Below are positions 8,455 to 24,800 of a DNA stretch of 26,036 nt, in pieces; the first letter of the stretch is position 1, and the number at the start of each line of letters is the position of its first letter. The notes under the pieces were generated by a model, which ran no database searches, was not told the origin of the DNA, and worked only from the letters and a program-made list of their open reading frames with translations. Location of the stretch: contig CAZSTA010000028.1 in assembly GCA_964609495.1 (NCBI GenBank), forward strand, positions 1 through 26,036, written 5' to 3'. Made by a program: the position numbers and the translations under genes. Origin of the DNA: an uncultured bacterium. GTDB taxonomy: Bacteria; CAZSTA01.

Positions 8455-8895
8455 CTATTCCTCACCTAGATAATCCAGCCAAGTTCTTATCTTCCCTCGA
8501 AATACGAGGTAATAAGCTATAGTCAATGCGGCGAAGAGGGTGAAGATGTCGAGTGAGGCTCCCAATAAAGCAACAACTAATCCATATACTGCAATACCTT
8601 CTCCTAAAGCGAAGATAACTAATCCTTTACTCAATATGTCATTGGTGGACAATTGGGCTCTTCGTTGCTTGAACAAGATATTCTCTAAGAGAAATCCCAC
8701 TCCAAATTGAATTAAGGATACTAATAGTAGCGATATAACCAGTATATTCAAAGTCGAGGATTCTAATTGAAGTGAGAGAATATCTCTGAGAAGCAGAATC
8801 ACGATTAAGTAAATACCCATAGGGATTATACCGATCAGAAAAGCAAATAACTCTAATTTAGATCTCAATCTTTGTCTATCTGAAGAGGTATCCAT
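8455..8895 (-). CDS. small hypothetical membrane protein (about 4 TM)
   Basis: 146-aa hydrophobic ORF with a GAAGGGAG RBS, packed tightly between the M1 peptidase and MFS genes. Confidence 0.5.
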   Translation of the reverse strand: MDTSSDRQRLRSKLELFAFLIGIIPMGIYLIVILLLRDILSLQLESSTLNILVISLLLVSLIQFGVGFLLENILFKQRRAQLSTNDILSKGLVIFALGEGIAVYGLVVALLGASLDIFTLFAALTIAYYLVFRGKIRTWLDYLGEE

Positions 8896-8920
8896 CTTAT
8901 GCGCTCCCTTCTCAATCGGT

Positions 8921-11083
8921 TTACAGAAGTCGAATAAGCTTTGGTAAAGAGGGAGCTAACATAAAGAAGTTGTCGAGGAGCATCCACACGAGAATAGTGA
9001 GAAATATAAAGTTTCCTCTTATCCAGTTGCTACCTCTCTTGTAAAGGATGAGTGAACTCAAGAATAGAGATATTATAGAGACAGAGATTATATAGTAGGT
9101 GTTAGTAGAGGAGATGAGTTGATAAGTGTTATCATAGCTTACCATCCCTATCTCAGTTCCATAAGTTTTGATCGTTATTTTTCCTATGATTTGAAGGACG
9201 AGAAGTACCAGAAGAAGGATGAAGAAAGAGCGATCGGTAAGATTTTTGCGCCTTCTGAGCCAAGAGTATATCAAAGCTATTACTACAAATAGCAAGAGGA
9301 TGGGCGAATTCCAAAGAAGAAGCTGATTGAAAAAGAATGATATCAGGGCTATCAGGTGGATTCTGAGCGATCTTCGATTATTAGTCCGATCTATATCGAT
9401 TATTCTGTGATCGGGATCGATCTCAACCATCTCTACTCGAGATATAGTATTTATCTCGATCTGTGCTTTTTTCCCTTCTACCTCCCATCTTCTTATAAGT
9501 TCCTTGCCCTTGGGAAGGAGAAAATGAATCTCGACCGGCATATCTATCTCGCCCAACTGCTTGATTAGGACTTCAGTTTTAAACGCTCCCTCGCTTCTAG
9601 TAGTATGAGCTTCCTCTATAGCATAATCACATCGCTTATTAGTTCTCAGCCACTCATCGAAGAACCATCCTAATTTTTCTCCACTCACCTCTTCGCATAT
9701 TTTTATGAAATCGGAGATGTGAGCTATTTTGAATTTATATTGCTGATAATAGATATTGAATATCTTATTAAAGTTATCATCTCCTACCAGGAAAGCCAGA
9801 GAGTCACATATAAGAGCTCCTTTGCTATATACTAAAGAATCATAGGTTTTATAGTCCTTAAAATCATAGACCGGGGAGAGCGTTGTTTGCTCGATACTTG
9901 GATTATTTTGGACGAAGCCGAGATAATCTCTCTCCAGATAAGAGCGCAGAGCTGAACCTTGAGAATTCCTTCCGTGCTTATCCTCAAGATGACGCATTGC
10001 CCAATAGCTAGCTACAGCTTCATCTAACCAAGGCTCCCTTATCTGATCGTTTCCTATGATATTATACCACCATTGATGGGACACCTCATGACCTATAATG
10101 AATTCAAAGATGAGAGAGCTAGAGGTGGTTAGGGAGTACAGGTTGTTGCCCATAAAGATCAGATTGGGATATTCCATCGCTCCATTACCTAATGGCACTT
10201 CGGCTATAGTTAGTTGAGCATAGGGATATTGTCCCACTGTGCTATCCAGATACATCAGCATCTCTTTTGTAAATTTCCAAGCCTCCTCTCCCCCTCTTTT
10301 ATGCTGAGGAAGGTATAGAGAGCGAATCTTTATACCTCTGACCTCCTTCTCCAATATCTCATAATGGGGACTGCAAACTAAAGCGAAATCTCTACTCGGA
10401 GCAGAAGTAACGAGGTGAAGGGTTTTTATTCCATCTCCCCTATTTATAGTCTCTTTGATCTCCCCCGTTGTTCCCACCACTTCACTTTCAGGTAGGTTTA
10501 TTTTAACTTCGTATAAAGCCGCTTCGCTATAGAATGGATCCCCTAGGGGATAATAGGGATCCAGACGCCAATTCCCCTCTTCATAAACCGCTAGAATAGG
10601 ATACCAGTTTCCTAGATAAGTTACTCCTCCATCATACCCAAAGCGAAAGCGAACATTTGGTATCTTCTCCTTAAACTTTATCCTCAAAGTTATCTTCTCA
10701 TTCGGAGGGAGAGTATCTTTCAGAGGGACTCTCATTACAGTTCCTTCGATATCTGGGATAAGTTCATAGGAATGGACGATATCTTCGACAGCTTCGATAT
10801 CTATATAGCCACTATCAAAGCCATTCGGATATTCGGGAATAAAGCCGTCTTTGGTAAAGATCACAGTATCAGAAGTTTTAAACGCATTAGGATAAAGATG
10901 AAAATATAGCTCGGATAACCCTGCCCCGGTATCGTTAAAGAAGTTCACCAACTCTTCGCCCTCAAGAGTATGATTTTCGGTATCAAGTGTTACCTCTAAG
11001 GAGTAGGAATTATATTTATCTTCAGCAAGGGTGGGAAGGGATAGGATAAACAGCAGTAAAATAGGTATTATTACTCTTTTCAT
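8921..11083 (-). CDS. M1-family zinc metallopeptidase (aminopeptidase N-like) with an N-terminal signal peptide and a C-terminal multi-TM anchor
   Basis: GAMEYP (a GAMEN-like exopeptidase motif) and HEVSHQWW...EPWLDEAVASY (HEXXH-X18-E zinc motif). The signal-peptide-like N-terminus is MKRVIIPILLLFILSLPTLA. The last ~150 aa are hydrophobic. RBS GAGGAG. Confidence 0.85.
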   Translation of the reverse strand: MKRVIIPILLLFILSLPTLAEDKYNSYSLEVTLDTENHTLEGEELVNFFNDTGAGLSELYFHLYPNAFKTSDTVIFTKDGFIPEYPNGFDSGYIDIEAVEDIVHSYELIPDIEGTVMRVPLKDTLPPNEKITLRIKFKEKIPNVRFRFGYDGGVTYLGNWYPILAVYEEGNWRLDPYYPLGDPFYSEAALYEVKINLPESEVVGTTGEIKETINRGDGIKTLHLVTSAPSRDFALVCSPHYEILEKEVRGIKIRSLYLPQHKRGGEEAWKFTKEMLMYLDSTVGQYPYAQLTIAEVPLGNGAMEYPNLIFMGNNLYSLTTSSSLIFEFIIGHEVSHQWWYNIIGNDQIREPWLDEAVASYWAMRHLEDKHGRNSQGSALRSYLERDYLGFVQNNPSIEQTTLSPVYDFKDYKTYDSLVYSKGALICDSLAFLVGDDNFNKIFNIYYQQYKFKIAHISDFIKICEEVSGEKLGWFFDEWLRTNKRCDYAIEEAHTTRSEGAFKTEVLIKQLGEIDMPVEIHFLLPKGKELIRRWEVEGKKAQIEINTISRVEMVEIDPDHRIIDIDRTNNRRSLRIHLIALISFFFNQLLLWNSPILLLFVVIALIYSWLRRRKNLTDRSFFILLLVLLVLQIIGKITIKTYGTEIGMVSYDNTYQLISSTNTYYIISVSIISLFLSSLILYKRGSNWIRGNFIFLTILVWMLLDNFFMLAPSLPKLIRLL

Positions 11084-11260: not shown

Positions 11261-11290
11261 CTAGTAAGTGATAATAGTAATTATTACTAG
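11261..11290 (+). promoter_or_regulatory. Fur-family-like operator candidate: perfect 7-1-7 palindrome TAGTAAT-T-ATTACTA (11275-11289) nested in the larger CTAGTAA...TTACTAG, abutting the -35 of the prx promoter
   Basis: Palindrome read from the sequence. It matches 13/15 positions of the Zur box TCGTAATnATTACGA and 11/15 of the PerR box TTATAATnATTATAA. Its position immediately upstream of and overlapping the -35 is typical of a repressor site. Confidence 0.4.
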
Positions 11291-11530: not shown

Positions 11531-12193
11531 ATGGAAGAGGAAGAGACTATCGAAATGAAGGAAGCTGTTTCAGTGCCTAGACTTGGGGAGCCAGCCCCAA
11601 CCTTCGAAGCTGTAACTACCCAAGGGACAGTGCGGCTCGAGGATTTCAAAGGTAGTTGGCTGATAATGTTCTCCCATCCAGCCGACTTCACTCCAGTCTG
11701 CACCACTGAGTTTATGGGTTTTGCCGAGATCTATGAGCCACTTAAAAAACGGGGTGTTGAGTTGATGGGCCTCAGTATTGACAGTGTTTATTCCCATATC
11801 GCTTGGGTGCGCAATATTGAGGAGAAGATGGGAGTCAAGATCCCATTTCCCGTAATTGCAGATCTAAACAAGGAAGTGGCAAGTCTTTACGGGATGATTA
11901 TGCCCGGGGAGTCGAAGACGGAGACTTCTCGCTGTGTTTTTGTGATCGATCCAAATGGGATCCTGAGGGCTATGATTTACTATCCGCTTACTACCGGACG
12001 TAACATGCAGGAGATTCTACGTCTAATCGATGCCTTGCAGACTACCGATAAGCACGGTGTTGCTACGCCAGCCAATTGGGAACCTGGCGATCCAGTGATT
12101 GTGCCACCTCCTAACACTCAAGAGATGGCAGAGCAGAGATTAAAGGAAGGATATGAGTGTAAGGATTGGTATTTCTGCAAGAAGAAACTTTGA
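11531..12193 (+). CDS. peroxiredoxin, 1-Cys (Prx6-like) type
   Basis: Peroxidatic Cys motif FTPVCTTE, a Prx6-like C-terminal extension, and an AAGGAGG RBS 9 nt upstream. Confidence 0.85.
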   Translation: MEEEETIEMKEAVSVPRLGEPAPTFEAVTTQGTVRLEDFKGSWLIMFSHPADFTPVCTTEFMGFAEIYEPLKKRGVELMGLSIDSVYSHIAWVRNIEEKMGVKIPFPVIADLNKEVASLYGMIMPGESKTETSRCVFVIDPNGILRAMIYYPLTTGRNMQEILRLIDALQTTDKHGVATPANWEPGDPVIVPPPNTQEMAEQRLKEGYECKDWYFCKKKL

Positions 12194-12210: not shown

Positions 12211-12432
12211 ATGGCGTGTATAAATCCAGATGGTACTTTGACTCCTTCGGCTAAAGTGATATTATCCGCGGTGCAGAAACCTTCCACCCCGGAGGATGTG
12301 CAACAAGCTACTGAATTACCGCTTTTCCGAATTAGGAGCAGTTTTCGAGAGCTATTAGCTGCGGGTTTAATTGAGGAACAAGAAGGTAAATATGTGATTA
12401 CAGAAGAGGGTCGTCAAAAAATTACAACTTAG
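12211..12432 (+). CDS. small winged-helix DNA-binding protein (candidate regulator)
   Basis: 73-aa ORF with GGAGGG RBS. The predicted helical core is followed by a ...GKYVITEEGRQ beta-hairpin wing pattern typical of small wHTH proteins. Confidence 0.45.
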   Translation: MACINPDGTLTPSAKVILSAVQKPSTPEDVQQATELPLFRIRSSFRELLAAGLIEEQEGKYVITEEGRQKITT

Positions 12433-12514: not shown

Positions 12515-13066
12515 ATGGCTAAAGTAACACGAGAAATGGTGGAGAGATCAGGTGTCAATGTTGACCAACTGATAGAGTTGCTGGTCAAGAATGCCGCGGC
12601 TGAGCTTACCACTTATTACTATTACACCATCCTCCGGTTCAATTTAATTGGACTGAAAGGAGAAGGGGTCAAAGAGATTGCAGAGACTGCCCGTATTGAA
12701 GATCGGAATCACTTCGAGGCTCTTGTGCCCCGCATCTACGAACTCGGTGGCAAACTGCCGGAGAATATGAAGGATTTCCATGACATCTCAGCCTGTCCGC
12801 CTGCCAGTCTGCCAAAGGATCCGACTGACGTCCAAGCAATACTAACGGTGCTGGTGGAAGCGGAAAGATGCGCAGTGCGGGGATATACCCAAATCTGCAA
12901 TATGACTGCTGGTAAGGACCATCGGACCTACGACTTGTCTTTGTCGATTCTCAACGAGGAAATCGAGCATGAATCCTGGTTCTCCGAATTCTTGGGCGAA
13001 GGTCCCTCCGGACACTTCCTGCGTAGAGGGGAGACCTCTCCCTTTGTGTCCAAATTTCTGATGTAG
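12515..13066 (+). CDS. Dps-like ferritin-superfamily protein (DPSL / bacterioferritin-like diiron four-helix bundle)
   Basis: E/ExxH-type ligands (EAERCAV...EEIEHESW). The ~180-aa size and Cys pair (CPPAS, ERCAV) recall archaeal/bacterial DPSL proteins. RBS AGGAGGTG. Confidence 0.6.
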   Translation: MAKVTREMVERSGVNVDQLIELLVKNAAAELTTYYYYTILRFNLIGLKGEGVKEIAETARIEDRNHFEALVPRIYELGGKLPENMKDFHDISACPPASLPKDPTDVQAILTVLVEAERCAVRGYTQICNMTAGKDHRTYDLSLSILNEEIEHESWFSEFLGEGPSGHFLRRGETSPFVSKFLM

Positions 13067-13155: not shown

Positions 13156-13392
13156 ATGAAAAAGTTCAATAAGAAAGAACTTGCCCGATATAATGGCAAA
13201 AATGGAGCTCCAGCATTCATCGCCTACAACGGAAAGGTATATGATGTATCCGCTAGTTTTCTATGGCAGGATGGGAATCATCAAGTTCTTCACAATGCTG
13301 GCGTAGATTTGACCGATGCTCTTGAACAAGCCCCCCATGGCGCGGATATGCTTGAAAGATTTCCCATAGTTGGAATGTTATCCGAGGATTGA
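13156..13392 (+). CDS. cytochrome b5-like heme/steroid-binding domain protein
   Basis: 78 aa. The pattern LARYNGKNGAPAFIAYNGKVYDVSAS...G.H matches the cyt-b5-like fold (PGRMC/b5 family). Confidence 0.6.
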   Translation: MKKFNKKELARYNGKNGAPAFIAYNGKVYDVSASFLWQDGNHQVLHNAGVDLTDALEQAPHGADMLERFPIVGMLSED

Positions 13393-13564: not shown

Positions 13565-13593
13565 TTGACAATAGCTAGATTGTATTGTATAAT
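13565..13593 (+). promoter_or_regulatory. perfect consensus sigma70 promoter TTGACA-17nt-TATAAT for the rubredoxin-FDP operon
   Basis: -35 at 13565-13570, -10 at 13588-13593, and a ~115-nt leader containing the 7-3-7 palindrome. Confidence 0.55.
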
Positions 13594-13715: not shown

Positions 13716-13898
13716 ATGGCAGATATGGCGAAGTGGCAATGTCTAGCTTGCGGATATATATACGATCCTGAGAAGGGGGATCCCGATAGTGGGGTAGAAC
13801 CAGGGACTCCTTTCGAGGATCTACCAGATGATTGGGTTTGCCCAGATTGTGGGGCAGATAAGGACTCCTTTGAGAGAATAGACGAATCTGAGGAGTAA
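13716..13898 (+). CDS. rub: rubredoxin
   Basis: CxxCG...CPxCG iron site ([12 protein letters not shown] ... [14 protein letters not shown]). The alternative start at 13725 (MAKWQC) gives a canonical rubredoxin N-terminus. Confidence 0.9.
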
Positions 13899-13911
13899 TT
13901 CGGATTAAAAG

Positions 13912-13949
13912 ATGGATGATAGTATTGTAGGCATGATGCTATCATCCAT
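13912..13949 (+). terminator. perfect 11-bp inverted repeat ATGGATGATAG-16nt-CTATCATCCAT located 14 nt after the rubredoxin stop. It may be an attenuator or partial terminator between rub and the FDP gene.
   Basis: Read from the sequence and followed by TAATCGAATTT. Confidence 0.4.
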
Positions 13950-14036
13950 TAATCGAATTTATGTTGAGTATAGAGCGGAATAGGAAAGGGGTGAGAAGTC
14001 TGGCGATCGCTTAGTTCGATCGACCAGGCAAAAATA

Positions 14037-15218
14037 GTGCAACCTGTAAGGATCAAAAAGGGTATATATTGGATTGGAGCTTTAAATCCTAACCTCAGGA
14101 TTTTCGATATAATTATGAAGACGGAGTGGGGAACTACTTACAACTCCTATCTGGTTAAAAGTAATGATAAGATCGCCGTCTTCGAGACGGTCAAGGATAA
14201 ATTCACCGATGATTTCATCGATAACTTAAAATCTTTGGTGGATATAAAATATATAGACTATGTGATCGTAAGTCATACCGAGCCAGATCACTCTGGTTCT
14301 CTAGGCAAGCTCTTAGAATTAGCACCTAACATCAAGGTGGTATCCTCTAAGGTAGCTTGTCGTTTTGCTCAAGAGATAATCAACAAGGAAATCGATTGCC
14401 TTACTGTTGGGGATGGCGATACCCTAGATTTGGGGGGCAAAACCCTCAGATTCTTCTCCACTCCATTCTTACATTGGCCAGATTCTATACTCACTTATCT
14501 GGTAGAGGATAAGATATTGTTCTCCTGCGACGTTTTCGGCTCTCACTATTGCGATGATAGACTATTCGACGACTTAGTTGATGATTTCACCGAGGTCAAT
14601 CGCTATTATTTCGATCATATTATGAGGCCTTTCAAGGATAATGTTCTCGAAGCTCTAAATAAGATAAAGGATTTGGATATAGAGATAATAGCCACTGGAC
14701 ATGGACCGATCTTGAGACAAGATCCCCAAAAATATATCAAACGTTATACCGATTGGGCTAGTATTCCCAGGAAAGAAGGGAATAAGAAGATCATCATAGC
14801 TTATATATCGGCTTATGGAAATACAACGAAGATGGCTAAGGAGATCGCTAAGGGCGCTTCTTCAAATGGAGTGAGGGTTTCTTTACACGATCTTATCTGG
14901 CCCGATATTCCTACTTTAGTCGATGAGATAGAGGCGGCAGATGGATTACTCGTGGGTTCGCCAACGATAAATGGTGATGCGGTAAAGCCGGTATGGGATC
15001 TACTATCGAGCTTAGCCACATTGAAGCTTAAAGGCAAGACCGGAGCCGCGTTCGGATCCTATGGTTGGAGTGGAGAAGCAGTTAAGATGCTTGAGGATAG
15101 GATGAGAAGCCTCAAGTTTAAGGTTATAGAGCCAGGGGTCAGGGCGAATTTCGTTCCCGATGAGGAGGATTTGGCGAAATGCGAGGAATTTGGAAGGAAG
15201 TTCGCTGAGGCTCTATAA
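14037..15218 (+). CDS. fprA: flavodiiron protein (class A FDP; rubredoxin:oxygen/NO oxidoreductase, FprA/ROO-like), GTG start
   Basis: N-terminus QPVRIKKGIYWIGA...GTTYNSYLV parallels Moorella FprA. Metallo-beta-lactamase-like diiron motif HTEPDHSGS. C-terminal flavodoxin-like domain (IIAYISAYGNT). Confidence 0.85.
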   Translation: MQPVRIKKGIYWIGALNPNLRIFDIIMKTEWGTTYNSYLVKSNDKIAVFETVKDKFTDDFIDNLKSLVDIKYIDYVIVSHTEPDHSGSLGKLLELAPNIKVVSSKVACRFAQEIINKEIDCLTVGDGDTLDLGGKTLRFFSTPFLHWPDSILTYLVEDKILFSCDVFGSHYCDDRLFDDLVDDFTEVNRYYFDHIMRPFKDNVLEALNKIKDLDIEIIATGHGPILRQDPQKYIKRYTDWASIPRKEGNKKIIIAYISAYGNTTKMAKEIAKGASSNGVRVSLHDLIWPDIPTLVDEIEAADGLLVGSPTINGDAVKPVWDLLSSLATLKLKGKTGAAFGSYGWSGEAVKMLEDRMRSLKFKVIEPGVRANFVPDEEDLAKCEEFGRKFAEAL

Positions 15219-15273
15219 TTATAGGGATATGGCTTAAAGACCCTATTCAAACTATTATAAAGGAAGTGATTAT

Positions 15274-16491
15274 TTGCTCCTCGAGGTAATCTGGATAATA
15301 CTTAACTCGGCAAGAGATGCTTTTATTCAAGTTGGCGTTTGGGTAGCTTTGATGTTGATAATATTCGGTTACATCGAGTATGCAACCAAAGGCAGAATCG
15401 TCGGATCGATACGAAGAGGAAGACGCTGGCAACCTTTAATAGGTGCTTTCTTAGGAGTTACCCCAGGTTGCGGAGGAGCTATCTTCGTTATGCCTCTCTT
15501 CGTCAATGGGACTGTAACCTTCGGGACTGTAATAGCTACTCTGGTAGCTACTATGGGAGATTCTTCGTGGGTGATAATAGCTGGGCTCCCTAAAGATGCC
15601 TTGCTCATTCATACTATACTTTTCGTCAGTGGGATTATCGTTGGTTATATAGTGGATTGGCTAAAGATCGGGATTAATCTAGTTAGACCGGGGAAGGAGA
15701 TAGAGGAAACATCCAGACGACTGGGACAGCAATATGCCCAAGCTGAAAATTCCTCTTTTCATCCTGAAGCTTTCAAATATGAACATTTAGAGTCGACAGA
15801 ACAGGTAGATATACTGCATGCCGCCTCCCACGTTCATCCTGACAGTATCTCCTATAACTTAACCCACAACTTCTATATGGTGATATGGATAGCTTTCTCG
15901 ATAGGCTTCATAATATCCTTCTTCACTCAGCTTCAAATAGCTGCTCCGGAGCAAGTCGATGCCATATTCGGAGGGTTTCCCATCTACAACGTAGTAGGAG
16001 TTGTAGGAACACTGCTGTGTATAATCTGGATGGTATTGAGCGACAAATTTCTCAGAGATGATACTTATGAGCAGGTAGAGGAGAAACTTGAGTCTATGCG
16101 GGAGACTTTGATCCACAGTGCTGAGGAGACCGCCTTTGTAGTAGCTTGGGTAACAGCCGCTTACATAGTATTTGAGCTCTTTCTATACCTAACTAATATC
16201 GACCTGGCATATATAGTTAACCGAGCTGGGATTATATCGGTTATAGCGGCGGCAGCTATAGGGTTGATCCCTGGATGTGGCCCTCAGATAATCACTACTA
16301 GTCTGTATATTAAAGGAGTTATCCCCTTCGCGGCAGTGATCTCTAACGCGCTGAGTCAGGATGGAGATGCGTTATTCCCCCTCTTATCCCTACACCGGAA
16401 ATCGGCTCTATATGCTACGATAATAACTACTATTCCCGCGATAATAATTGGCTGTATCTTCTATCTACTGGGAATAGGGGGCTTTAGGTAA
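15274..16491 (+). CDS. internally duplicated polytopic permease with one P-G-C-G motif per half (TPGCGGAI and IPGCGPQI). It is possibly a metal transporter of the ArsP_2/10TM-exporter type.
   Basis: 405 aa, TTG start with AAAGGAAG RBS. Two homologous hydrophobic halves are separated by a ~90-aa acidic cytoplasmic loop. The stop overlaps the ATG at 16491 of the encapsulin cargo gene. Confidence 0.6.
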   Translation: MLLEVIWIILNSARDAFIQVGVWVALMLIIFGYIEYATKGRIVGSIRRGRRWQPLIGAFLGVTPGCGGAIFVMPLFVNGTVTFGTVIATLVATMGDSSWVIIAGLPKDALLIHTILFVSGIIVGYIVDWLKIGINLVRPGKEIEETSRRLGQQYAQAENSSFHPEAFKYEHLESTEQVDILHAASHVHPDSISYNLTHNFYMVIWIAFSIGFIISFFTQLQIAAPEQVDAIFGGFPIYNVVGVVGTLLCIIWMVLSDKFLRDDTYEQVEEKLESMRETLIHSAEETAFVVAWVTAAYIVFELFLYLTNIDLAYIVNRAGIISVIAAAAIGLIPGCGPQIITTSLYIKGVIPFAAVISNALSQDGDALFPLLSLHRKSALYATIITTIPAIIIGCIFYLLGIGGFR

Positions 16492-16520
16492 TGCTTTCTG
16501 ATTTGGAAGGAGGTGACAAT

Positions 16521-17501
16521 ATGGACGTAGAAAAAGCAATATCCCTCTTAAATAGGGATATCGAATCGGAACATGCCGCTATCATTCAGTATCTCCAGCA
16601 AGCCTATATGATGGGAGAAGGAGAATACGCTTGTGAGATAGAGGCGATAGCTAGGGAGGAGATGAGACATCTCGATTGGTTAGGGGAGAAGGTGGCTGAA
16701 TTAGGAGGTGATCCCAGCATCAAACGGGCTGAGGTGATCTTAGGAGGTCCGGTTAACACTGATATGCTTAAGCAAGACGTTCTATCTGAGGAGATGGCTA
16801 TCTCCGAATACAGGAGACACATAGAGGAGATAGGAGATCCAGAGATCACCAGGCTTATAGAGAGGATCATCGCCGATGAGGAAGCTCACCGCACGATATT
16901 CAGCGATATGATCAAGGAGATCGAGGAAGAGGAGGGAGTTAAAGAGATCGTCCTCAAGGATATGTCCAAGCCGAGGGAGGAGGAGAAGGAAGTCGTCGGG
17001 ATGATGAAGGGTAATATCGACGCTGAGTACACCAATATCTTAAAGTATATACATCAATCCTTCGTAACTGGCGACTGCGAGTTCAGCAGAGATTTAGAGG
17101 AGATAGCTATAGAGGAGATGAAGCATCTCGGTTGGGTCTCAGAGGAGTTACAAGGTATGGGTTTCAAACCCGATATTGAGTATATCGAAGTCGAGCGAAC
17201 TCGCGATGAGGTGGAGATGCTGAAATCCGATATCGAGGGAGAGCGTCGTGCTACCGATCGGTATCAAAAGCAAGTGGAGACCCTTGAAGATCCGAAGCTT
17301 AGGGAGCTTATGGATAGGATTAAACTTCACGAAGTATATCATGGTGAGGATTTCAACGAGTATTTGGAGAAATTCTCCAAGGCTGAGGAAGAAGCAAAAG
17401 AGGCTCCTGCAAAGGTTGAAGAAGCTGAGGAGAAGAAACCCGAATCTCCTGCGGGAAAGCTCACGATAGGAAGTCTATTGGGGAAGGAACAGGGAGAATG
17501 A
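16521..17501 (+). CDS. encapsulin cargo: tandem (double) bacterioferritin/rubrerythrin-like diiron four-helix-bundle protein with C-terminal encapsulin targeting peptide
   Basis: Two full E, ExxH, E, ExxH ligand sets (domain 1: ESEHAAI, EEMRH, SEEMAISEY, DEEAH; domain 2: DAEYTNI, EEMKH, EVEMLKSDIEGE, HEVYH). A Glu/Lys/Ala-rich linker follows, then the C-terminal GKLTIGSLLGKEQGE, which matches the family-1 cargo-loading consensus (L-x-I-G-S-L-x-G). The start with a perfect GGAGGTGA RBS is 16521. The ORF track start at 16491 is in frame and overlaps the upstream stop. Confidence 0.8.
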   Translation: MDVEKAISLLNRDIESEHAAIIQYLQQAYMMGEGEYACEIEAIAREEMRHLDWLGEKVAELGGDPSIKRAEVILGGPVNTDMLKQDVLSEEMAISEYRRHIEEIGDPEITRLIERIIADEEAHRTIFSDMIKEIEEEEGVKEIVLKDMSKPREEEKEVVGMMKGNIDAEYTNILKYIHQSFVTGDCEFSRDLEEIAIEEMKHLGWVSEELQGMGFKPDIEYIEVERTRDEVEMLKSDIEGERRATDRYQKQVETLEDPKLRELMDRIKLHEVYHGEDFNEYLEKFSKAEEEAKEAPAKVEEAEEKKPESPAGKLTIGSLLGKEQGE

Positions 17502-17536
17502 TCGAGCTGATATTTCTAATGAAGGGAGGATAATAA

Positions 17537-18382
17537 ATGGCTGATTATCTAATGAGAGACGAAGCTCCTCTAAGTTCTGAGGAATGGGGAAAGATAGACG
17601 AGACAGTGGTTGAAGTTGCTCAGAAACAATTGGTCGGCAGGCGCTTTATTCCCATCTTTGGACCTATCGGAGCAGGTGTTCAAATGATCGCTAGCGATGT
17701 CTTCGCTGGATTAGGCGAGGGGAAAACCGATGTCTTCGGAGATGAAGCGACCGATCCGATATTATCCAAGGGAAGGAAATATATTACCTTACCTATGATC
17801 TACAAGGATTTCAAGCTCTTCTGGAGGGATATCGAAGCCAGCAAGAAAGCAGGACTTCCCCTTAATATTCAATCAGCGGCAGCGGCCAGTGTTTTTTGTG
17901 CTTACAAAGAGGATGATCTGATATTCAACGGAGATAAGGAGTTCAATTGGGAGGGTCTCCTGAATGTTACTGGGAGGAAAAAGTTGATCTTCAGCGATTG
18001 GAGTATCTCCGGCAATATCTTACAAGATGTGGTGAATGCTACTAAGGAATTGGTAAGCTCTGGTAACTACGGACCTTATGCGATGGTGGTTAATCCCGCG
18101 ATGTATACCCAGATGTTCAGGACATATAAGAATTCAGGAGTTCTGGAGATCAGACATATAAGAGAGCTGGTAACCGCTGGTGTCTATCAATCATCAGCTG
18201 TAACAGATGATAAGGCGGTGGTGGTCTCAGTGGGATCTCAGAACTTCGATCTTGTCATAGGACAGGATCTTGTAACCGCTTATCTGGGACCTGAGAATCT
18301 AAATCATTCCTTCCGAGTCTTCGAGAGCTTAGCCTTGAGGATAAAGCGTCCCGATGCTATCTGCACTTTTGAGAAGAAGTAA
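17537..18382 (+). CDS. family 1 encapsulin shell protein (linocin M18-like, HK97 fold)
   Basis: N-terminus MADYLMRDEAPLSSEEWGKIDETVVEVAQKQLVGRRF parallels T. maritima encapsulin [21 protein letters not shown]...QLYGRKF. It also has GPYAMVVNPAMY, LVIGQDL and FRVFESLALRIKRPDAI blocks, and a GGGAGGA RBS. Confidence 0.9.
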   Translation: MADYLMRDEAPLSSEEWGKIDETVVEVAQKQLVGRRFIPIFGPIGAGVQMIASDVFAGLGEGKTDVFGDEATDPILSKGRKYITLPMIYKDFKLFWRDIEASKKAGLPLNIQSAAAASVFCAYKEDDLIFNGDKEFNWEGLLNVTGRKKLIFSDWSISGNILQDVVNATKELVSSGNYGPYAMVVNPAMYTQMFRTYKNSGVLEIRHIRELVTAGVYQSSAVTDDKAVVVSVGSQNFDLVIGQDLVTAYLGPENLNHSFRVFESLALRIKRPDAICTFEKK

Positions 18383-18406
18383 ATACGAAGTATAGACTTA
18401 TTTAGG

Positions 18407-18435
18407 GGTGTCGAGTCTTGTTGAGGCTCGACACC
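18407..18435 (+). terminator. strong hairpin GGTGTCGAG-11nt-CTCGACACC (9-bp perfect stem) between encapsulin and the downstream erythrin-like gene
   Basis: Read from the sequence. No U-tract follows, so it is a possible partial terminator or mRNA stabiliser. Confidence 0.35.
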
Positions 18436-18463
18436 TACGGGATATAGCAAGGAGGATTTTCGG

Positions 18464-18916
18464 ATGCAACAAACTAGTTTTGATGAGATCGTGGATTTTG
18501 CAATAGGTAAGGAGGTAGAGGCTGAGGCTTTCTACAAAGAGATAGTAGATCTCGTGGATCAAGATAATATGAGAACTATGTTTCGGGAACTTGCCGCAGA
18601 AGAGAAAAAACACCAAGATATCCTTAAAAATGTGAGTAAGGATAACGTAGAAAGATATAAGATCCAGGCAGTTCCCGATCTTAAAATAAGCGATTATCTG
18701 GTGGATGTTGAGCCGAAGCCCGATATGAATTATCAGGATGCCCTTATAATAGCGATGAAGAGGGAGGAAAGATCTGTCAGTCTTTATAGCGATATGGCTG
18801 ATAAAAGCGATAACACCGAATTGGAGAAACTATTTAAAGTCCTAGCTCAGGAGGAAGCCAAACATAAACTCAGATTGGAGACTGAATACGAGGCTCAAAT
18901 TCTATCTGAAGACTAA
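18464..18916 (+). CDS. erythrin/sulerythrin-like diiron protein (rubrerythrin-family ferritin-like domain without rubredoxin domain)
   Basis: 150 aa with E, ExxH, E, ExxH (EAEAFY, AAEEKKH, KREERSVSLY, AQEEAKH). AAGGAGGA RBS. Confidence 0.7.
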   Translation: MQQTSFDEIVDFAIGKEVEAEAFYKEIVDLVDQDNMRTMFRELAAEEKKHQDILKNVSKDNVERYKIQAVPDLKISDYLVDVEPKPDMNYQDALIIAMKREERSVSLYSDMADKSDNTELEKLFKVLAQEEAKHKLRLETEYEAQILSED

Positions 18917-18949
18917 TGCTTTTGAGCTATCTTGATGGGGGCCTGATAT

Positions 18950-20191
18950 ATGAACAATATCATCATAGGTAATGGCATCGCTGGATTAAGCGCAGCCGAG
19001 GCTATCCGAGAGGTGGATAAGAGTTGCGAGATAACTCTTCTTACCAAAGAAGGTTATGCCACCTATAGCCGACCGATGCTTCCTAGATTTTTAGTCAACA
19101 AGGTTACTATGGATAGACTGCTAGTTAGGAAGGAAGAGGATTACACCAGGCTTGATATTGATCTTAGGCTCAACAGCGAGGTCGAACGAATAGATACCTC
19201 CGAGAGAAAGGTCTTTCTAACCGATAGCTCTTCTCTAAATTATGATAATCTTATCATAGCCGCTGGTAGTTTTCCCTTCTTCCCTCATAAATTTATCAAG
19301 GGCTTAAACAAAGGCTGTATATACGGTCTTCGGACTATAGATGATGTCAAATATATAAATATGACTTTAGAGAAGAGCATAGACAAGGAGGTTGTGATCA
19401 TCGGAGGAGGGCTGATCGGGATAGAATTAGCTGATCTCCTAAATCAGGAGGGGTATCATATAACCCTTATAGATATAGCTGATCAGCTAGCACCCCCAGT
19501 GCTATTCAAGACTGCCGCTGACATTATGAGGAGGAAATTAGAAGGTTTAGGGATAAGGGTTCTACTTGATACCAAAGTCACTGAGGTTTTAGGAGCAGAG
19601 GAGGCCGAGGGGGTGGTCTTTGAGAAGGATGGCGAAGTTCAACAGTGCAGTAGCCAGCTAGTGGTCCTCTCCACTGGAGTTAGAGCTAGCATAGATCTTG
19701 CTCAAGATACCCCGCTAGAGACTAATCGAGGGATCATAGTGAACAGGATGATGAAGACTAATGTCGATAACGTATATGCCGCTGGGGATGTTGCGGAGCT
19801 TGTTGATCCTAATAGCGAGACTAGGATAATCAACTTCACCTGGAACAACGCCAGGGAACAAGGTCTTGTCGCTGGACATAATATGGCCGGGATGAATGAG
19901 GAGTATGAAAGTTCCTTCTCGGTTAATTATTCCTCTTTAGCCGGACTTCGCTTAGTATCCGCAGGAGATTTCAGGGGAGGTGAAGGGGACGAAATATTGA
20001 CTCAGGGGGATATCGAGAATGACATATACAAGAGGATAGTCATTAGAGATAACTCGATTATCGGCTTCAACTTCATCGGCGATACCTCCGATTCTAGGAT
20101 CATATCCTCACTTCTTCAGAGACAGGAGGATGTCAGCAATTTCAAAGATAAGCTTTTGAGCGGGAAGTTAAACGAGGTAGTTTCTTCATAA
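18950..20191 (+). CDS. FAD-dependent pyridine nucleotide-disulfide oxidoreductase, NAD(P)H:rubredoxin oxidoreductase / NADH oxidase-like
   Basis: N-terminal FAD Rossmann IIIGNGIAGLSAAEAIRE. Second NAD(P) Rossmann VVIIGGGLIGIELADLL. AAGDVAE FAD motif. No redox-active CxxxxC disulfide is obvious, consistent with the NROR/rubredoxin-reductase class. Confidence 0.75.
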   Translation: MNNIIIGNGIAGLSAAEAIREVDKSCEITLLTKEGYATYSRPMLPRFLVNKVTMDRLLVRKEEDYTRLDIDLRLNSEVERIDTSERKVFLTDSSSLNYDNLIIAAGSFPFFPHKFIKGLNKGCIYGLRTIDDVKYINMTLEKSIDKEVVIIGGGLIGIELADLLNQEGYHITLIDIADQLAPPVLFKTAADIMRRKLEGLGIRVLLDTKVTEVLGAEEAEGVVFEKDGEVQQCSSQLVVLSTGVRASIDLAQDTPLETNRGIIVNRMMKTNVDNVYAAGDVAELVDPNSETRIINFTWNNAREQGLVAGHNMAGMNEEYESSFSVNYSSLAGLRLVSAGDFRGGEGDEILTQGDIENDIYKRIVIRDNSIIGFNFIGDTSDSRIISSLLQRQEDVSNFKDKLLSGKLNEVVSS

Positions 20192-20297
20192 ATAAGGGAA
20201 ATTTTTTAACCTTGAGCTCTATTTGTATAAGAGGGGTTGAGGGGAGAATTTCTCCCCCAATTGCGGCAAAAATTCCCTTTAACAAGGAGGATGAAAG

Positions 20298-20783
20298 ATG
20301 AGTATATTCTTTTCAGGAGTTGAGTTAGTTGATATAGCTGTTCAAATAGAGAAGAACGGATATGCCTTCTATAACTCTTTGATCAACAAGGCTGAGACTC
20401 AAAAATCCAAGGATATCTTCAGCTTTTTGGCAGGGGAAGAGAAGAAGCATATCGCTACTTTCAAGAGCATAGGTGAAGCGCTAGGTGATTATGAGATTCC
20501 CGATTTATACAGTCAAGAGGAGTACCAACTCTATATGAAAGCCTTAGCCGATTCCGAGGTCTTCACCAAGCAGATAGATATAGATAAGTTAGTCGAGAAG
20601 GCAAAGAGCGATGTGGAAGCTATTGATATGGCGATGGGCTTCGAGCGGGATTCTCTACTCTTCTACTATGAGATAAGAAATGTGGTTCGACAGCAAGATC
20701 AAAAGGTAGTAGATGAGTTAATCTCTCAGGAGAAATCCCATTTGAGGCAACTATCCAAACTCAAGAACGAGATACAAGCCTGA
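20298..20783 (+). CDS. erythrin/sulerythrin-like diiron protein, paralog of 18464-18916
   Basis: 161 aa with the ligand pattern E (IEKNGYAFY), ExxH (AGEEKKH), E (GFERDSLLFY), ExxH (QEKSH). AAGGAGGA RBS. Confidence 0.7.
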   Translation: MSIFFSGVELVDIAVQIEKNGYAFYNSLINKAETQKSKDIFSFLAGEEKKHIATFKSIGEALGDYEIPDLYSQEEYQLYMKALADSEVFTKQIDIDKLVEKAKSDVEAIDMAMGFERDSLLFYYEIRNVVRQQDQKVVDELISQEKSHLRQLSKLKNEIQA

Positions 20784-21113: not shown

Positions 21114-22070
21114 ATGTCTTATGCGGAGAGGATAAAGGAGATAGAGAGAGGTTTAAAACAAGGTATAAGGGTTGAAAAGTTCTCTTTGGATCTTGATCAC
21201 CTGGGTCCTGGGGAGAAGAGGAGATTATACGAGTTTATGTATGCCCATGGCCCTGGCAATGGGAAGATGTTGTTTCTTCCTATCGATCAAGGGGTGGAGC
21301 ATGGCCCCAGCGATTTCTTTCCCAATCCTCCTAGCGTTGATTTCGATTTCCAACTGGCTCTTGCTGAGGAGGGAGGGTATTCGGGTATAGTTTGTCATAT
21401 AGGCTTAGCGGAGAAACATATGAAGAAGTTCGCGGGCAGAGTTCCTCTGATTCTGAAGATCAACGGTAAGACTAACATCCCCTCCGATGAGGAGGCTTTC
21501 TCAGCTCTGGATGCAACGGTGGAGGATGCAGTCAGACTCGGAGCGGATGCTATCGGTTATACCCTCTATGTTGGTTCTCCAAGTCAAGATCGAGACTTCG
21601 TCCAATTTATGCAGGTCAGACAGGAAGCTAAAAGATATGGAATGCCAGCTATTATGTGGGCTTATCCGAGAGGAAAATATGTCGAGGAAAAAGGCGGGCG
21701 GGATTCCTTAGCTATGGTTCATTATGCGGCTAGAATCGCTAACGAGTTGGGAGCAACCTTAGTTAAGATAAATCAACCCAAGGCTCCTAAGGGGGGCGAA
21801 TATACCGATAAGTTCTTCGGCAAATACAACCAATATAAGGACCTTGATGATCAGACCTCCCTCAATATGGCGGTTCAAGCGGCGGGAAGGACTGGCGTAT
21901 TAGTCTCTGGAGGAAGTAAGATCAGCGATGAGGATCTCCTGAACAAAGCTGAGGCTTCCTTAAAGGCTGGAGTCGATGGCTTGATCTTCGGAAGGAATAT
22001 GTGGCAGCGAAAGTTTGAGGATGCGCTTGAGATAACCAGAGAGATCAAGAAGATGATGCAAGAGTTCTAG
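21114..22070 (+). CDS. class I fructose-bisphosphate aldolase of the DhnA/FbaB (archaeal-type) family. An ADH-synthase-like paralog cannot be excluded.
   Basis: 318 aa with the N-terminal pattern IRVEKFSLDLDHLGPGEKRRL...LFLPIDQGVEHGP characteristic of DhnA-type TIM-barrel aldolases. The Schiff-base lysine region is LVKINQPK. RBS AAGGAGGA. Confidence 0.7.
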   Translation: MSYAERIKEIERGLKQGIRVEKFSLDLDHLGPGEKRRLYEFMYAHGPGNGKMLFLPIDQGVEHGPSDFFPNPPSVDFDFQLALAEEGGYSGIVCHIGLAEKHMKKFAGRVPLILKINGKTNIPSDEEAFSALDATVEDAVRLGADAIGYTLYVGSPSQDRDFVQFMQVRQEAKRYGMPAIMWAYPRGKYVEEKGGRDSLAMVHYAARIANELGATLVKINQPKAPKGGEYTDKFFGKYNQYKDLDDQTSLNMAVQAAGRTGVLVSGGSKISDEDLLNKAEASLKAGVDGLIFGRNMWQRKFEDALEITREIKKMMQEF

Positions 22071-22207: not shown

Positions 22208-22933
22208 ATGATGCTTAAATTAGAAAACCTATCTGTCGAGGTCTCTGGAGAGGAGATACTTCGAGATATAAACTTGGAGATCGAAGAGGGCGAGACTCAT
22301 ATCCTCTTTGGTCAAAATGGGTCTGGTAAAACATCATTGGCCATGACTATAATGGGTTTCCCTAGATACAGAATTACCAAGGGTAAGATTATCTTTAAGG
22401 GGAAGGTGATAAATGATATCCCTGTCTATGAGAGAGCGAAGTTGGGAATTGGGATTCTCTTTCAAAGGCCGCCAACGATTAGAGGAATCAAGCTGAGGCA
22501 AATGCTTGAGATTAGTGGTCATGATTCGGCTGATATAGATGGTTTAGCTGAGGGACTTAATATGAACGATTTTATGGACAGGGATATAAACTCAGGATTT
22601 TCTGGAGGAGAGATTAAGCGCTCAGAAGTGTTACAGCTTATGGCTCAGGCTCCAGATCTATCATTGCTGGATGAACCAGATTCAGGGGTTGATCTGGAAA
22701 GCATGGCTCTTATGGGCGAGGCGATAAATAAATTGCTGGATAAACAATTGAGGAGGAGACGTAAAAAAGCGGGGCTTATAATCACCCATACTGGCTATAT
22801 CCTTAACTATGTGGAAGCGGATAAGGGACATGTATTGTTCAATAAGTCCATCGGATGTAGTGGTAATCCGCGAGAATTGATACAAGGTATTAGCGAAAAT
22901 GGATATGAGGGGTGTTTAACGTGCCAAAAATAG
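22208..22933 (+). CDS. sufC: Fe-S cluster assembly ATPase SufC
   Basis: Walker A GQNGSGKTSLA, a degenerate ABC signature FSGGEIKR, Walker B LSLLDEPDSGVD, an H-loop ITH, and ~240 aa with no transmembrane partner. It is immediately followed by and overlaps a SufB/D gene. AGGAGGAT RBS. Confidence 0.85.
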   Translation: MMLKLENLSVEVSGEEILRDINLEIEEGETHILFGQNGSGKTSLAMTIMGFPRYRITKGKIIFKGKVINDIPVYERAKLGIGILFQRPPTIRGIKLRQMLEISGHDSADIDGLAEGLNMNDFMDRDINSGFSGGEIKRSEVLQLMAQAPDLSLLDEPDSGVDLESMALMGEAINKLLDKQLRRRRKKAGLIITHTGYILNYVEADKGHVLFNKSIGCSGNPRELIQGISENGYEGCLTCQK

Positions 22934-24102
22934 ATTCTAATGAGGATAAAATAGAGCTGGAACGGTATGAAAAGGAAGGGGAGAAAAGCCCTTACCTGGA
23001 AGATGTTTCCCAACTATCTCCAATTGATAGGGAGAGGATGGTTGGGGTAGGAGTCGATGTAACAAGCAAAGAGCGTTCGGGAACATTCATTCAGACCGAT
23101 CATAGTGTAGTCCATAGCAGTTCGCTCTATGAGGGTTTAGAGGTAATGGATATAGATGAGGCTCTGAACAAGTATGATTGGATTCGGGATAACTATTGGT
23201 GGAAGGCTGTGTCTCCTGACCAGGATGAATATACTAGGCAAGTCAAAGCTAATCCCCATCATGGATACTTCATCAGAGCCTTACCAGGCGTAAAAGTTAC
23301 CTATCCGCTACAAGCGTGCCTCTTCCTCAAGAAGAATAAATTGATGCAGAGCGTTCACAATGTTATAATTGCTGAACCCGATTCTGAGCTTAATATCATA
23401 ACTGGTTGTGCTACAGCTTCCTATGTGGAAGAAGGGATACATTTAGCGGTATCGGAAATATACGTGAGAAAGGGAGCTAAACTAAGCTCTACGATGATCC
23501 ACAGTTGGGGTGAGCAGGTGGTAGTTCGTCCGCGCTCCGTCACAATAGTAGAGGAAGACGGAACATTCCTTTCGAACTACATTGGCTTAAAGCCTGTGCG
23601 CTCGCTTCAGATGTATCCGACCACCAAACTCGTAGGAAGGGGAGGATTAGCTCGATATACCTCTATCCTCTATGCTCTCCCCGGATCATCTATGGATATC
23701 GGTTCTCGCGTCGTGCTTCAAGCAGAAGATACAAAAGCGGAGGTTATCTCAAGGGCTATCAGCGAAGGAGGAGAGATAATAGCTAGAGGGCACTTAGTGG
23801 GAGAAGTAGCGGGAGTGAAAGCTCACCTAGATTGTGGAGGAATGATTCTTTCGGATAAAGGTGTAATCCGTGCCATACCCGAGTTGGAGGGGAGAGTCCC
23901 AGATGTAGAATTATCGCACGAGGCGGCAATTGGGAAAGTAGCTAGGGAGGAGATCGAATATTTAATGGCTCGAGGTCTTAGCGAGGAGGAAGCAACTTCG
24001 ACTATTGTGCGAGGATTTTTAGATACGAGTATAATGGGATTACCACCTCAGCTCCAAGCCGAAGTCGATAGAGCTATGGAAGCTGTGGAGAAAGCTTATT
24101 AA
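22921..24102 (+). CDS. sufB: Fe-S cluster assembly scaffold protein of the SufB/SufD family, GTG start
   Basis: It lies downstream of and overlaps sufC. The C-terminal beta-helix region has conserved SufB-type blocks (KAHLDCGGMILSDKG, SHEAAIGKVAREEIEYLMARGLSEEEA). Either GTG at 22912 (ORF track) or GTG at 22921 (better GAGGGG spacing) could be the start. Confidence 0.75.
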   Translation: MPKIDSNEDKIELERYEKEGEKSPYLEDVSQLSPIDRERMVGVGVDVTSKERSGTFIQTDHSVVHSSSLYEGLEVMDIDEALNKYDWIRDNYWWKAVSPDQDEYTRQVKANPHHGYFIRALPGVKVTYPLQACLFLKKNKLMQSVHNVIIAEPDSELNIITGCATASYVEEGIHLAVSEIYVRKGAKLSSTMIHSWGEQVVVRPRSVTIVEEDGTFLSNYIGLKPVRSLQMYPTTKLVGRGGLARYTSILYALPGSSMDIGSRVVLQAEDTKAEVISRAISEGGEIIARGHLVGEVAGVKAHLDCGGMILSDKGVIRAIPELEGRVPDVELSHEAAIGKVAREEIEYLMARGLSEEEATSTIVRGFLDTSIMGLPPQLQAEVDRAMEAVEKAY

Positions 24103-24211: not shown

Positions 24212-24718
24212 ATGAGACAGATGACCGAGCAAAACCTAAGGGCCGCCTATGCGGGAGAGAGCCAAGCTCATATGAGATATAAGATATTCGCCGCTCAGGC
24301 GGAGAAGGAAGGGAAGTCCAACATCGCCAAGCTCTTTCGAGCTATCTCCTATGCTGAGCAGGTTCATGCTACCAATCACTTCAAAGCATTAGGGGATTTA
24401 GGACAGACTACCGAGAATCTCGACACGGCTATAGGTGGTGAGACCTACGAGGTAAACGAGATGTACCCAGCTTTCGATGCGGTAGCTGAGCTCCAGAGGG
24501 AGAAAGGGGCCAAGAGAAGCATATATTACGCTTTGGAAGCGGAGAAGATCCATGCATCAATGTATCAGGAAGCTAAGCAAGCCGCAGAAGCGGGAAAGGA
24601 TCTCGAGATCGGGGATATATTCATCTGTAGCGTATGCGGATATACTGTAGAGGGAGAGGCTCCTGATACCTGTCCGATATGTGGCGCTAAAAAGGAAATG
24701 TTCAAGAAGTTCAGTTAA
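24212..24718 (+). CDS. rbr: rubrerythrin (N-terminal diiron four-helix bundle plus C-terminal rubredoxin-like CxxC...CxxC domain)
   Basis: ExxH motifs (AEQVHA, EAEKIHA), C-terminal CSVCGYTVEGEAPDTCPICGAKKEMF, 168 aa. Confidence 0.9.
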   Translation: MRQMTEQNLRAAYAGESQAHMRYKIFAAQAEKEGKSNIAKLFRAISYAEQVHATNHFKALGDLGQTTENLDTAIGGETYEVNEMYPAFDAVAELQREKGAKRSIYYALEAEKIHASMYQEAKQAAEAGKDLEIGDIFICSVCGYTVEGEAPDTCPICGAKKEMFKKFS

Positions 24719-24800
24719 TAGATAGTTTATGAACAGGGGACGCCAGGTTACAGACCTCGCGCCTCTGACCTCATCTGATATCCGATCAGTAAAGGATCTA

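Follow-up and report, generated by a model that had tools for sequence, protein, structure and literature searches.

What an encapsulin shell encloses, and what the loaded compartment does for its host, is the question raised by a locus of an uncultured bacterium (GTDB lineage Bacteria; CAZSTA01). The locus lies on contig CAZSTA010000028.1 of assembly GCA_964609495.1, and the whole stretch analysed, positions 1 to 26,036 of the forward strand (26,036 nucleotides, nt), is referred to below as the window. The shell gene of a family 1 encapsulin is preceded there, on the same strand, by a gene for a double ferritin-like protein (DFLP), with a gap of 35 nt between the cargo stop (17501) and the shell start (17537). 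We consider it likely that these genes form a two-gene family 1 encapsulin system with the DFLP as core cargo, acting as an encapsulated ferroxidase and iron-mineralising compartment. The features of the locus are listed below (aa, amino acids; TP, targeting peptide; pLDDT, predicted local distance difference test).

16507-16515, + strand: Shine-Dalgarno sequence of the cargo gene, AAGGAGGTG (read from the sequence)
16521-17501, + strand: cargo gene, DFLP, 326 aa (Pfam Ferritin, 1.3e-23; PDB 9viw_A)
16521-16928, + strand: N-terminal bacterioferritin-like four-helix domain, residues 1-136 (alignment A1, AlphaFold2, Foldseek)
16929-16976, + strand: acidic interdomain linker, residues 137-152 (AlphaFold2: no helix, pLDDT 70-79)
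16977-17402, + strand: C-terminal bacterioferritin-like four-helix domain, residues 153-294 (alignment A1, AlphaFold2)
17403-17459, + strand: disordered acidic Pro/Ala-rich tether, residues 295-313 (AlphaFold2, homologue alignment)
17460-17498, + strand: predicted encapsulin TP, core LTIGSL and seven-residue tail LGKEQGE (fits [LF]-x-[VI]-G-x-[LI])
17524-17529, + strand: Shine-Dalgarno sequence GGGAGG of the shell gene (read from the sequence)
17537-18382, + strand: family 1 encapsulin shell gene, EncA-like, 281 aa (PF04454, 1.2e-72; NF041155, 6.1e-87)

The downstream gene encodes a family 1 encapsulin shell

The open reading frame (ORF) at 17537-18382 matched the Pfam model PF04454 (Linocin_M18) with 244.6 bits (cut-off, 24.3) and the NCBIfam model NF041155 (encap_f1) with 291.3 bits (cut-off, 100), in both cases over the full length. 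The latter model is named 'family 1 encapsulin nanocompartment shell protein' in NCBIfam, and these curated criteria place the product among the family 1 encapsulin shell proteins. The identification of an encapsulin in an earlier note, which had been made from the letters of this DNA, was thereby borne out, and the blocks quoted in it were present (APLSSEEWGKID...VGRRF, GPYAMVVNP, LVIGQDL, and RPDAI). The features of family 2 shells, namely an N-terminal extension, a cyclic nucleotide (cNMP)-binding insertion and N-terminal cargo-loading domains, were not found in the shell sequence, and Pfam showed no extra domains.

In a sequence search of the PDB, the shell matched 37 solved family 1 shells. 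The best scores were obtained with Myxococcus xanthus EncA (4pt2, 7s20; E 7e-90, about 48% identity) and the T=4 shell of Quasibacillus thermotolerans (6nj8; E 2e-81), and residues 1-279 of the 281-aa protein aligned end to end with the 287-aa EncA. The earlier comparison with Thermotoga maritima encapsulin (3dkt) was valid as homology (E 6e-17), but that protein is a distant relative. Because the shell is far closer to EncA (T=3) and to the Q. thermotolerans shell (T=4) than to T. maritima, the T=1 particle of about 24 nm that had been expected is doubtful. The shell is probably of the larger T=3 or T=4 type, about 32-42 nm in size.

The upstream gene encodes two complete diiron domains

Two in-frame starts were considered for the cargo gene. 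The GGAGG core of a strong Shine-Dalgarno site, AAGGAGGTG, ends 7 nt 5' of ATG 16521, and an alternative ATG at 16491, which overlaps the stop codon of the upstream permease gene, would give 336 aa. Because of the site 7 nt before ATG 16521, the 326-aa form is probably the product.

Pfam Ferritin matched the cargo in two stretches (1.3e-23). The weaker matches to Rubrerythrin (8e-10), COQ7 and Mn-catalase are the usual cross-talk among the ferritin-like superfamily. A family alignment of 26 sequences (A1) was prepared, which was also the input to AlphaFold2. The predicted structure (pLDDT 87.1; predicted template modelling score, pTM, 0.80) has eight helices in two four-helix bundles, formed by residues 3-31, 35-60, 80-104 and 107-136 in the N-terminal domain and by residues 153-182, 186-212, 230-254 and 258-294 in the C-terminal domain. 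The diiron ligands E17, E47, H50, E90, E120 and H123 of the N-terminal domain and E169, E199, H202, E241, E271 and H274 of the C-terminal domain were invariant among the 26 sequences. As all twelve ligand columns are invariant, both E/ExxH/E/ExxH sets are complete, and the two intact diiron domains claimed in the earlier note were confirmed. In addition, M48 and M200 were invariant in A1. They align with M48 and M198 of the solved DFLP of Thermocrinis minervae (TmDFLP) and are putative heme ligands, one per domain, at the position that ligates the inter-domain heme in bacterioferritin (Bfr).

In a Foldseek search of the PDB, each bundle matched Bfr or mini-Bfr structures, including the Methanoperedens mini-bacterioferritin, with template modelling scores, normalised to the target, of about 0.75-0.86 for the N-terminal domain. 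The search with the full-length cargo returned single-domain Bfr and mini-Bfr matches only (about 0.38 normalised to the query), from a fold library that does not contain the TmDFLP structure 9VIW; the full-length match to 9VIW therefore rests on sequence. Rubrerythrin consists of a single diiron four-helix bundle followed by a C-terminal rubredoxin-like Cys4 domain. A rubrerythrin identity of the cargo was rejected: it has no such Cys4 domain, its Rubrerythrin match is weaker than its Ferritin match, and no NCBIfam rubrerythrin model was matched. Of the label 'tandem bacterioferritin/rubrerythrin-like' given earlier, the bacterioferritin half stands, by the fold matches and the heme-ligand methionines, and the rubrerythrin half does not.

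The cargo belongs to a described family

The best PDB sequence match of the cargo was 9viw_A, a 306-aa chain annotated as 'Bacterioferritin' in the PDB, which was matched in a single stretch (residues 6-287) with E 9e-50 and about 35% identity. Apart from itself, the closest protein in a search of 5.8 billion sequences was at most 49% identical to the cargo, and the best match in a scan of GTDB species representatives was likewise 49% identical.

DFLPs were named and defined by Anuchina et al. (2025, bioRxiv 10.1101/2025.09.13.676036), with 157 members in InterPro. In that work, TmDFLP was solved (PDB 9VIW) and found to be a ferroxidase, and TmDFLP and CaDFLP (from Caldanaerovirga acetigignens) were found by size-exclusion chromatography with multi-angle light scattering, small-angle X-ray scattering and crystallography to be dimers or monomers but not cages; AlphaFold3 built no cages from them either. 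Both proteins bind heme at sub-stoichiometric levels; the presumed ligands are two methionines, which show 100% conservation across the family. The interdomain linker was unresolved in the TmDFLP crystal. The EEHEEH ligand set occurs in 79.6% of the N-terminal and 57.3% of the C-terminal DFLP domains. Moreover, 56 DFLPs, about a third, carry the C-terminal encapsulin-binding motif [LF]-x-[VI]-G-x-[LI], with an invariant Gly in the TP logo. The gene for CaDFLP, a core cargo, immediately precedes a family 1 shell gene, to whose product M. xanthus EncA is the nearest among the solved shells, and in both published hosts the DFLP is the only ferritin-domain protein (10.1101/2025.09.13.676036). 'Bfr' cargos with two four-helix bundles and C-terminal TPs had already been catalogued in Firmicutes, Aquificae, Chloroflexi and Cyanobacteria (Andreas & Giessen 2021, Nat Commun, PMC8346489).

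By every sequence-level feature that defines the family, the window cargo is a DFLP. The impression in the earlier note that its architecture was undescribed did not hold, given these two publications (10.1101/2025.09.13.676036; PMC8346489) and the match to 9VIW. The locus is a fairly divergent new example of a DFLP-cargo encapsulin, a type catalogued in 2021 and characterised in 2025.

The targeting peptide co-occurs with shell genes

In the AlphaFold2 model, cargo residues 300-326 were disordered, with pLDDT below 50 from residue 300 onward. The LTIGSL core comprises residues 314-319 (nt 17460-17477), seven residues from the C-terminus, in a tail that reads ...KKPESPAGKLTIGSLLGKEQGE. The acidic linker and the C-terminal loading peptide noted earlier were thus recovered, the latter following a tether that is disordered in the model. 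The window was translated in six frames and searched for a strict TP motif, [LFWYIM][TS][VI]G[SGN][LIM], at most 30 residues from the C-terminus of an ORF. LTIGSL was the sole match, and no other window ORF, including those for rubredoxin and an NADH:rubredoxin-type oxidoreductase (NROR), has a TP-like terminus that would mark a secondary cargo. No TP-like terminus was found either in the erythrin-like proteins encoded after the encapsulin gene in the window and at two further loci (L060 and L073).

For comparison, 80 DFLP loci from GTDB species representatives and five from assemblies were collected and then searched with the window proteins. The cargo homologues from the search of 5.8 billion sequences fall into two forms, one of about 279 aa that ends right after helix 8 and one of about 310-340 aa with a Pro/Ala/Glu-rich tether that ends in [LFW]T[VI]GSL. 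The tether was present in all TP-bearing homologues and missing from the 279-aa forms; tether and TP together are the sole systematic difference between encapsulin-linked and unlinked DFLPs. An encapsulin gene was present at all 13 strict-motif loci (10 distinct proteins), usually 19-85 nt downstream of the DFLP gene, once 533 nt and once 4.3 kb away. The DFLP-encapsulin gene order was also found at L085 and L086. For the statistical test, distinct loci were counted (82, of which 10 had the strict C-terminal motif and 72 did not). A shell gene was present at 10/10 of the former and 1/72 of the latter (Fisher p 5e-12), and the DFLP at the one locus of the 72 that has a shell gene (L039) carries a variant, PSIGSL. 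This co-occurrence, together with the lack of another TP-like terminus in the window, argues strongly, if indirectly, for LTIGSL as a functional signal for loading.

In one lineage (L083 6001-12031, and L084), a four-gene 2-oxoacid:ferredoxin oxidoreductase cluster and a flavodiiron protein (FDP) gene lie between the TP-bearing DFLP and the encapsulin gene, and in another (L086 3298-5920) the DFLP gene is immediately preceded by POR genes.

The locus lies in an oxygen-defence gene island

The neighbouring genes and features are listed below.

11531-12193: 1-Cys peroxiredoxin
12211-12432, + strand: ORF of 73 aa, weakly matched by the winged-helix Sso10a family (1e-4)
12515-13066, + strand: archaeal-type DPS-like (DPSL) mini-ferritin (NF009990, 8.8e-99)
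13156-13392, + strand: small ORF of 78 aa, read by us as cytochrome b5-like, with no NCBIfam match
13716-13898, + strand: rubredoxin
14037-15218, + strand: FDP
15274-16491, + strand: ArsP_2-family metal permease with ten transmembrane segments (PF11449, 5.7e-98)
18406-18436, + strand: hairpin with a 14-bp stem, a 3-nt loop and no U tract, 24 nt 3' of the shell stop
18464-18916, + strand: erythrin-like protein
18950-20191, + strand: NROR
20298-20783, + strand: second erythrin-like protein
21114-22070: DeoC-type aldolase
22208-22933: SufC-like ABC ATPase
22912-24102: SufB/D
24212-24718: genuine rubrerythrin
24729-25382: FMN reductase

From 13716 to 20783, every gene lies on the + strand and no gap exceeds 138 nt, in a run for defence against O2 and reactive oxygen species (ROS) whose order is rubredoxin, FDP, permease, DFLP, shell, erythrin-like protein, NROR and erythrin-like protein. 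The DPS-like mini-ferritin gene lies 3.4 kb upstream of the DFLP gene, and the 78-aa and 73-aa ORFs also sit inside this oxidative-stress island. With rubredoxin, FDP, erythrin-like, NROR, peroxiredoxin and rubrerythrin genes around the locus, the O2-detoxification island of an apparent anaerobe described earlier was found as claimed, and the host is probably an anaerobe. The peroxiredoxin is 75-80% identical to Dehalococcoidia sequences and the FDP about 60% identical to Anaerolineae sequences. The nearest relatives of the neighbouring genes appear to be from Chloroflexota, which loosely points to a Chloroflexota-like host.

Erythrin-like diiron proteins of 150-161 aa, without a rubredoxin domain and without a TP, recur directly 3' of DFLP or DFLP-encapsulin genes at several Chloroflexota loci: in the window (18464-18916 and 20298-20783, + strand), at L060 (4789-5241) and L073 (9798-10253), and at about 8860-9356 at L015, L052, L063 and L079. 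The pattern suggests that DFLPs and erythrin-like proteins are conserved partners and that the shell gene was inserted between their genes.

The ArsP_2 permease gene ends 29 nt before the DFLP start and is probably co-transcribed with the cargo gene. Its relatives are labelled 'putative manganese transporter' or 'arsenic efflux protein' in the source records. Its two closest homologues on long contigs (57% identity) lie beside genes for Fur, DUF2325, a TonB-dependent receptor/TonB and flavodoxin. As the closest homologues sit in such Fur/TonB/flavodoxin contexts, their neighbourhood suggests an iron or manganese permease rather than an arsenic exporter, and such a permease may have been recruited into the DFLP-encapsulin operon. 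No ArsP_2 permease was found near the DFLP at the 85 other loci examined; a role as a conserved DFLP partner was therefore rejected, and the gene was treated as a local peculiarity.

Candidate regulatory signals

The 81-nt intergenic region after the shell gene (18383-18463) had a predicted RNA folding energy of -27.1 kcal/mol (z -4.07 versus shuffles). The stable hairpin within it may act as a partial terminator or stabilise the mRNA, and the balance between the shell/cargo transcript and those of the downstream genes could depend on it. A perfect TTGACA-17-TATAAT sequence at 13565-13593 (+ strand), upstream of the rubredoxin gene, is a candidate promoter that could drive the run from rubredoxin through FDP, permease and DFLP to the shell. 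A second perfect copy, at 11157-11129 (- strand), faces an M1 peptidase gene. Upstream of the peroxiredoxin gene (11531) and beside a TATAAT, a perfect 7-1-7 palindrome, TAGTAATtATTACTA, was found at 11275-11289, which resembles a PerR/Fur-family operator. As for an operator of this type common to the peroxiredoxin gene and the DFLP run, the window contained one exact copy of the palindrome, and near-matches occurred at chance frequency.

Comparison with characterised systems

The window cargo shares with TmDFLP and CaDFLP two bacterioferritin-derived four-helix domains per chain, a flexible linker between them, a conserved helix-B Met in each, EEHEEH ligands in the N-terminal one and a disordered tether that leads to a C-terminal [LF]T[VI]GSL peptide. 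With CaDFLP it has further in common that its gene immediately precedes that of an EncA-like family 1 shell and that neighbours of the rubredoxin and rubrerythrin type are present. In TmDFLP, however, the C-terminal site is ESHEEH, with Ser at the second position, whereas the window cargo has the canonical EEHEEH. Unlike the hosts of TmDFLP and CaDFLP, the window host also encodes a DPS-like ferritin, and an ArsP_2 permease belongs to the gene run. The 'Bfr' cargo class of the 2021 catalogue (PMC8346489) is the same entry as the window cargo, although 24-mer Bfr cages were assumed there and the later DFLP data indicate dimers.

The closest solved shells belong to the M. xanthus EncA/EncB/EncC/EncD system (T=3) and the Q. 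thermotolerans IMEF system (T=4), whose TPs read LTVGSL or FTVGSL. Both systems combine ferroxidase cargo with iron mineralisation in the shell, properties ascribed to the window locus from relatives. The cargos differ: M. xanthus EncB/C is of the two-helix EncFtn type and that of Q. thermotolerans is a single four-helix IMEF, whereas the window cargo is a fused double Bfr-like protein with a putative heme site. Moreover, no ferredoxin with an N-terminal TP is encoded at the window locus. T. maritima encapsulin with its Flp cargo (T=1) is alike in being family 1 with the HK97 fold, a C-terminal TP and a ferritin-like cargo gene upstream, but its shell is distant and the protein inside, a two-helix EncFtn, forms decamers.

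Asgard archaeal double ferritins (dFTNs) also carry two ferritin-type domains per chain, arisen by duplication, with intact diiron sites. Each of their domains comprises five helices, the linker is ordered, and they assemble by themselves into 12-mer shells (bioRxiv 10.64898/2026.08.25.747088); they have no link to encapsulin. A dFTN identity of the window cargo was rejected, as it has four helices per domain without the fifth, its linker is non-helical and of low confidence rather than ordered, and among PDB entries TmDFLP matches it best by a wide margin.

Proposed function and alternative explanations

In the proposed system, the DFLP would form a dimer rather than a 24-mer cage, and LTIGSL would tether it to the inner face of the shell during assembly. 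Fe2+ would enter through the shell pores and be oxidised by O2 or H2O2 at the diiron centres, and the resulting Fe3+ would mineralise in the shell lumen. Family membership, the ligand sets, the disordered tether with its TP motif and the co-occurrence of motif and shell gene come from the present analysis; that the cargo is dimeric, binds heme, acts as a ferroxidase, is loaded and mineralises iron is carried over from characterised relatives. Because the genes lie on one strand among genes for O2/ROS defence, the most likely role would be to remove Fenton-active Fe2+ and to consume oxidant when the anaerobe meets oxygen, while the iron stays recoverable.

Several points weigh against this proposal. 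The window also encodes a DPS-like mini-ferritin, so that iron storage need not depend on the encapsulin compartment. We know of no measurement of iron mineralisation within a shell loaded with a DFLP. In the published work, a location of DFLPs inside the shell is called only 'highly likely', loading having been shown experimentally for none; the heme occupancy of recombinant DFLPs was 3-8%; and CaDFLP was poorly active (10.1101/2025.09.13.676036). The T number of a shell is not derivable from its sequence, and the larger size suggested here is an argument from similarity. A homologue of FDP, NROR, peroxiredoxin or the erythrin-like proteins lies within 8 kb of the DFLP at 50 of the 80 loci, a count made without a background control. 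Furthermore, co-transcription with the neighbours was inferred from spacing, and because the promoter scan was not enriched over shuffles (26 found versus 20.1 +/- 5.2), the operon boundaries are inferred as well.

The same neighbourhood can be read differently, with the compartment mainly an oxidant-scavenging nanoreactor in which the diiron sites and heme reduce H2O2 or O2, as in a rubrerythrin, Dps or Bfr peroxidase, and iron deposition is a by-product; the electrons would come ultimately from rubredoxin and NROR, or from Fe2+. This would fit the embedding of the genes among rubredoxin, FDP, two erythrin-like proteins and an NROR-like flavoprotein, the peroxiredoxin, rubrerythrin and FMN reductase nearby, the similar neighbours at the 50 of 80 loci, and the rubrerythrin, rubredoxin or desulfoferrodoxin genes that adjoin the encapsulated DFLPs of L085 and L086. 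The conserved heme methionines also suggest an electron-transfer route. However, Fe2+ oxidation is the only activity demonstrated for the DFLP family (10.1101/2025.09.13.676036), encapsulin shells have no known route by which protein donors could pass electrons through them, the rubredoxin and NROR of the window lack TPs, and the closest shells (EncA and that of Q. thermotolerans) are those of iron-storage systems. We therefore regard scavenging as the main function as unlikely.

Two further alternatives concern what the shell contains. That the cargo is itself a closed bacterioferritin-like cage of 12 subunits (24 domains) packaged in the encapsulin, a shell within a shell, is very improbable in our judgement: TmDFLP and CaDFLP are dimers or monomers from which AlphaFold3 builds no cages (10.1101/2025.09.13.676036), and the cargo sides with TmDFLP, its best PDB match by far, rather than with the five-helix domains and ordered linker of the dFTNs. 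The idea was raised for cargos annotated as Bfrs (Andreas & Giessen 2021, PMC8346489), and Asgard dFTNs do form 12-mer shells (10.64898/2026.08.25.747088). Finally, LTIGSL might be unused, the DFLP being free in the cytosol like the TP-less DFLPs of about 279 aa and the shell holding something else or nothing. Since most DFLPs have neither a TP nor an encapsulin, the fold does function unenclosed, and loading has been demonstrated for no DFLP (10.1101/2025.09.13.676036). Against this stand the co-occurrence of the strict motif with an encapsulin gene at 10/10 distinct loci, the shell gene only 35 nt away, the absence of a TP-like terminus from every other window ORF, and the tether and TP as the only systematic difference of encapsulin-linked DFLPs, and we give this explanation almost no credence.

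Implications

The DFLP-encapsulin field is very recent and consists of one preprint (10.1101/2025.09.13.676036). The window locus opens no new category, as its architecture has already been described. As a wider speculation, which we hold to be distinctly improbable, rubredoxin, FDP, permease, DFLP, shell, erythrin-like protein and NROR may form one oxygen-stress operon that provides a reversible, regulated iron buffer coupled to oxidant removal. The permease would then gate the supply or export of Fe2+, and the heme-bearing encapsulated DFLP would be redox-wired to rubredoxin and NROR, for iron release or for the reduction of O2 or H2O2. If so, the compartment would be a regulated and reversible iron buffer, not a passive store.

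For the proposed ferroxidase compartment, the locus provides a clean and compact core-cargo example in which both ferroxidase sites are canonical, whereas in TmDFLP, the only solved member of the family, the C-terminal site is degenerate. With two canonical diiron sites, a compact operon and a rich O2-defence context, the locus is a suitable choice for reconstituting a loaded DFLP shell for the first time and for asking whether O2 or H2O2 is the oxidant.

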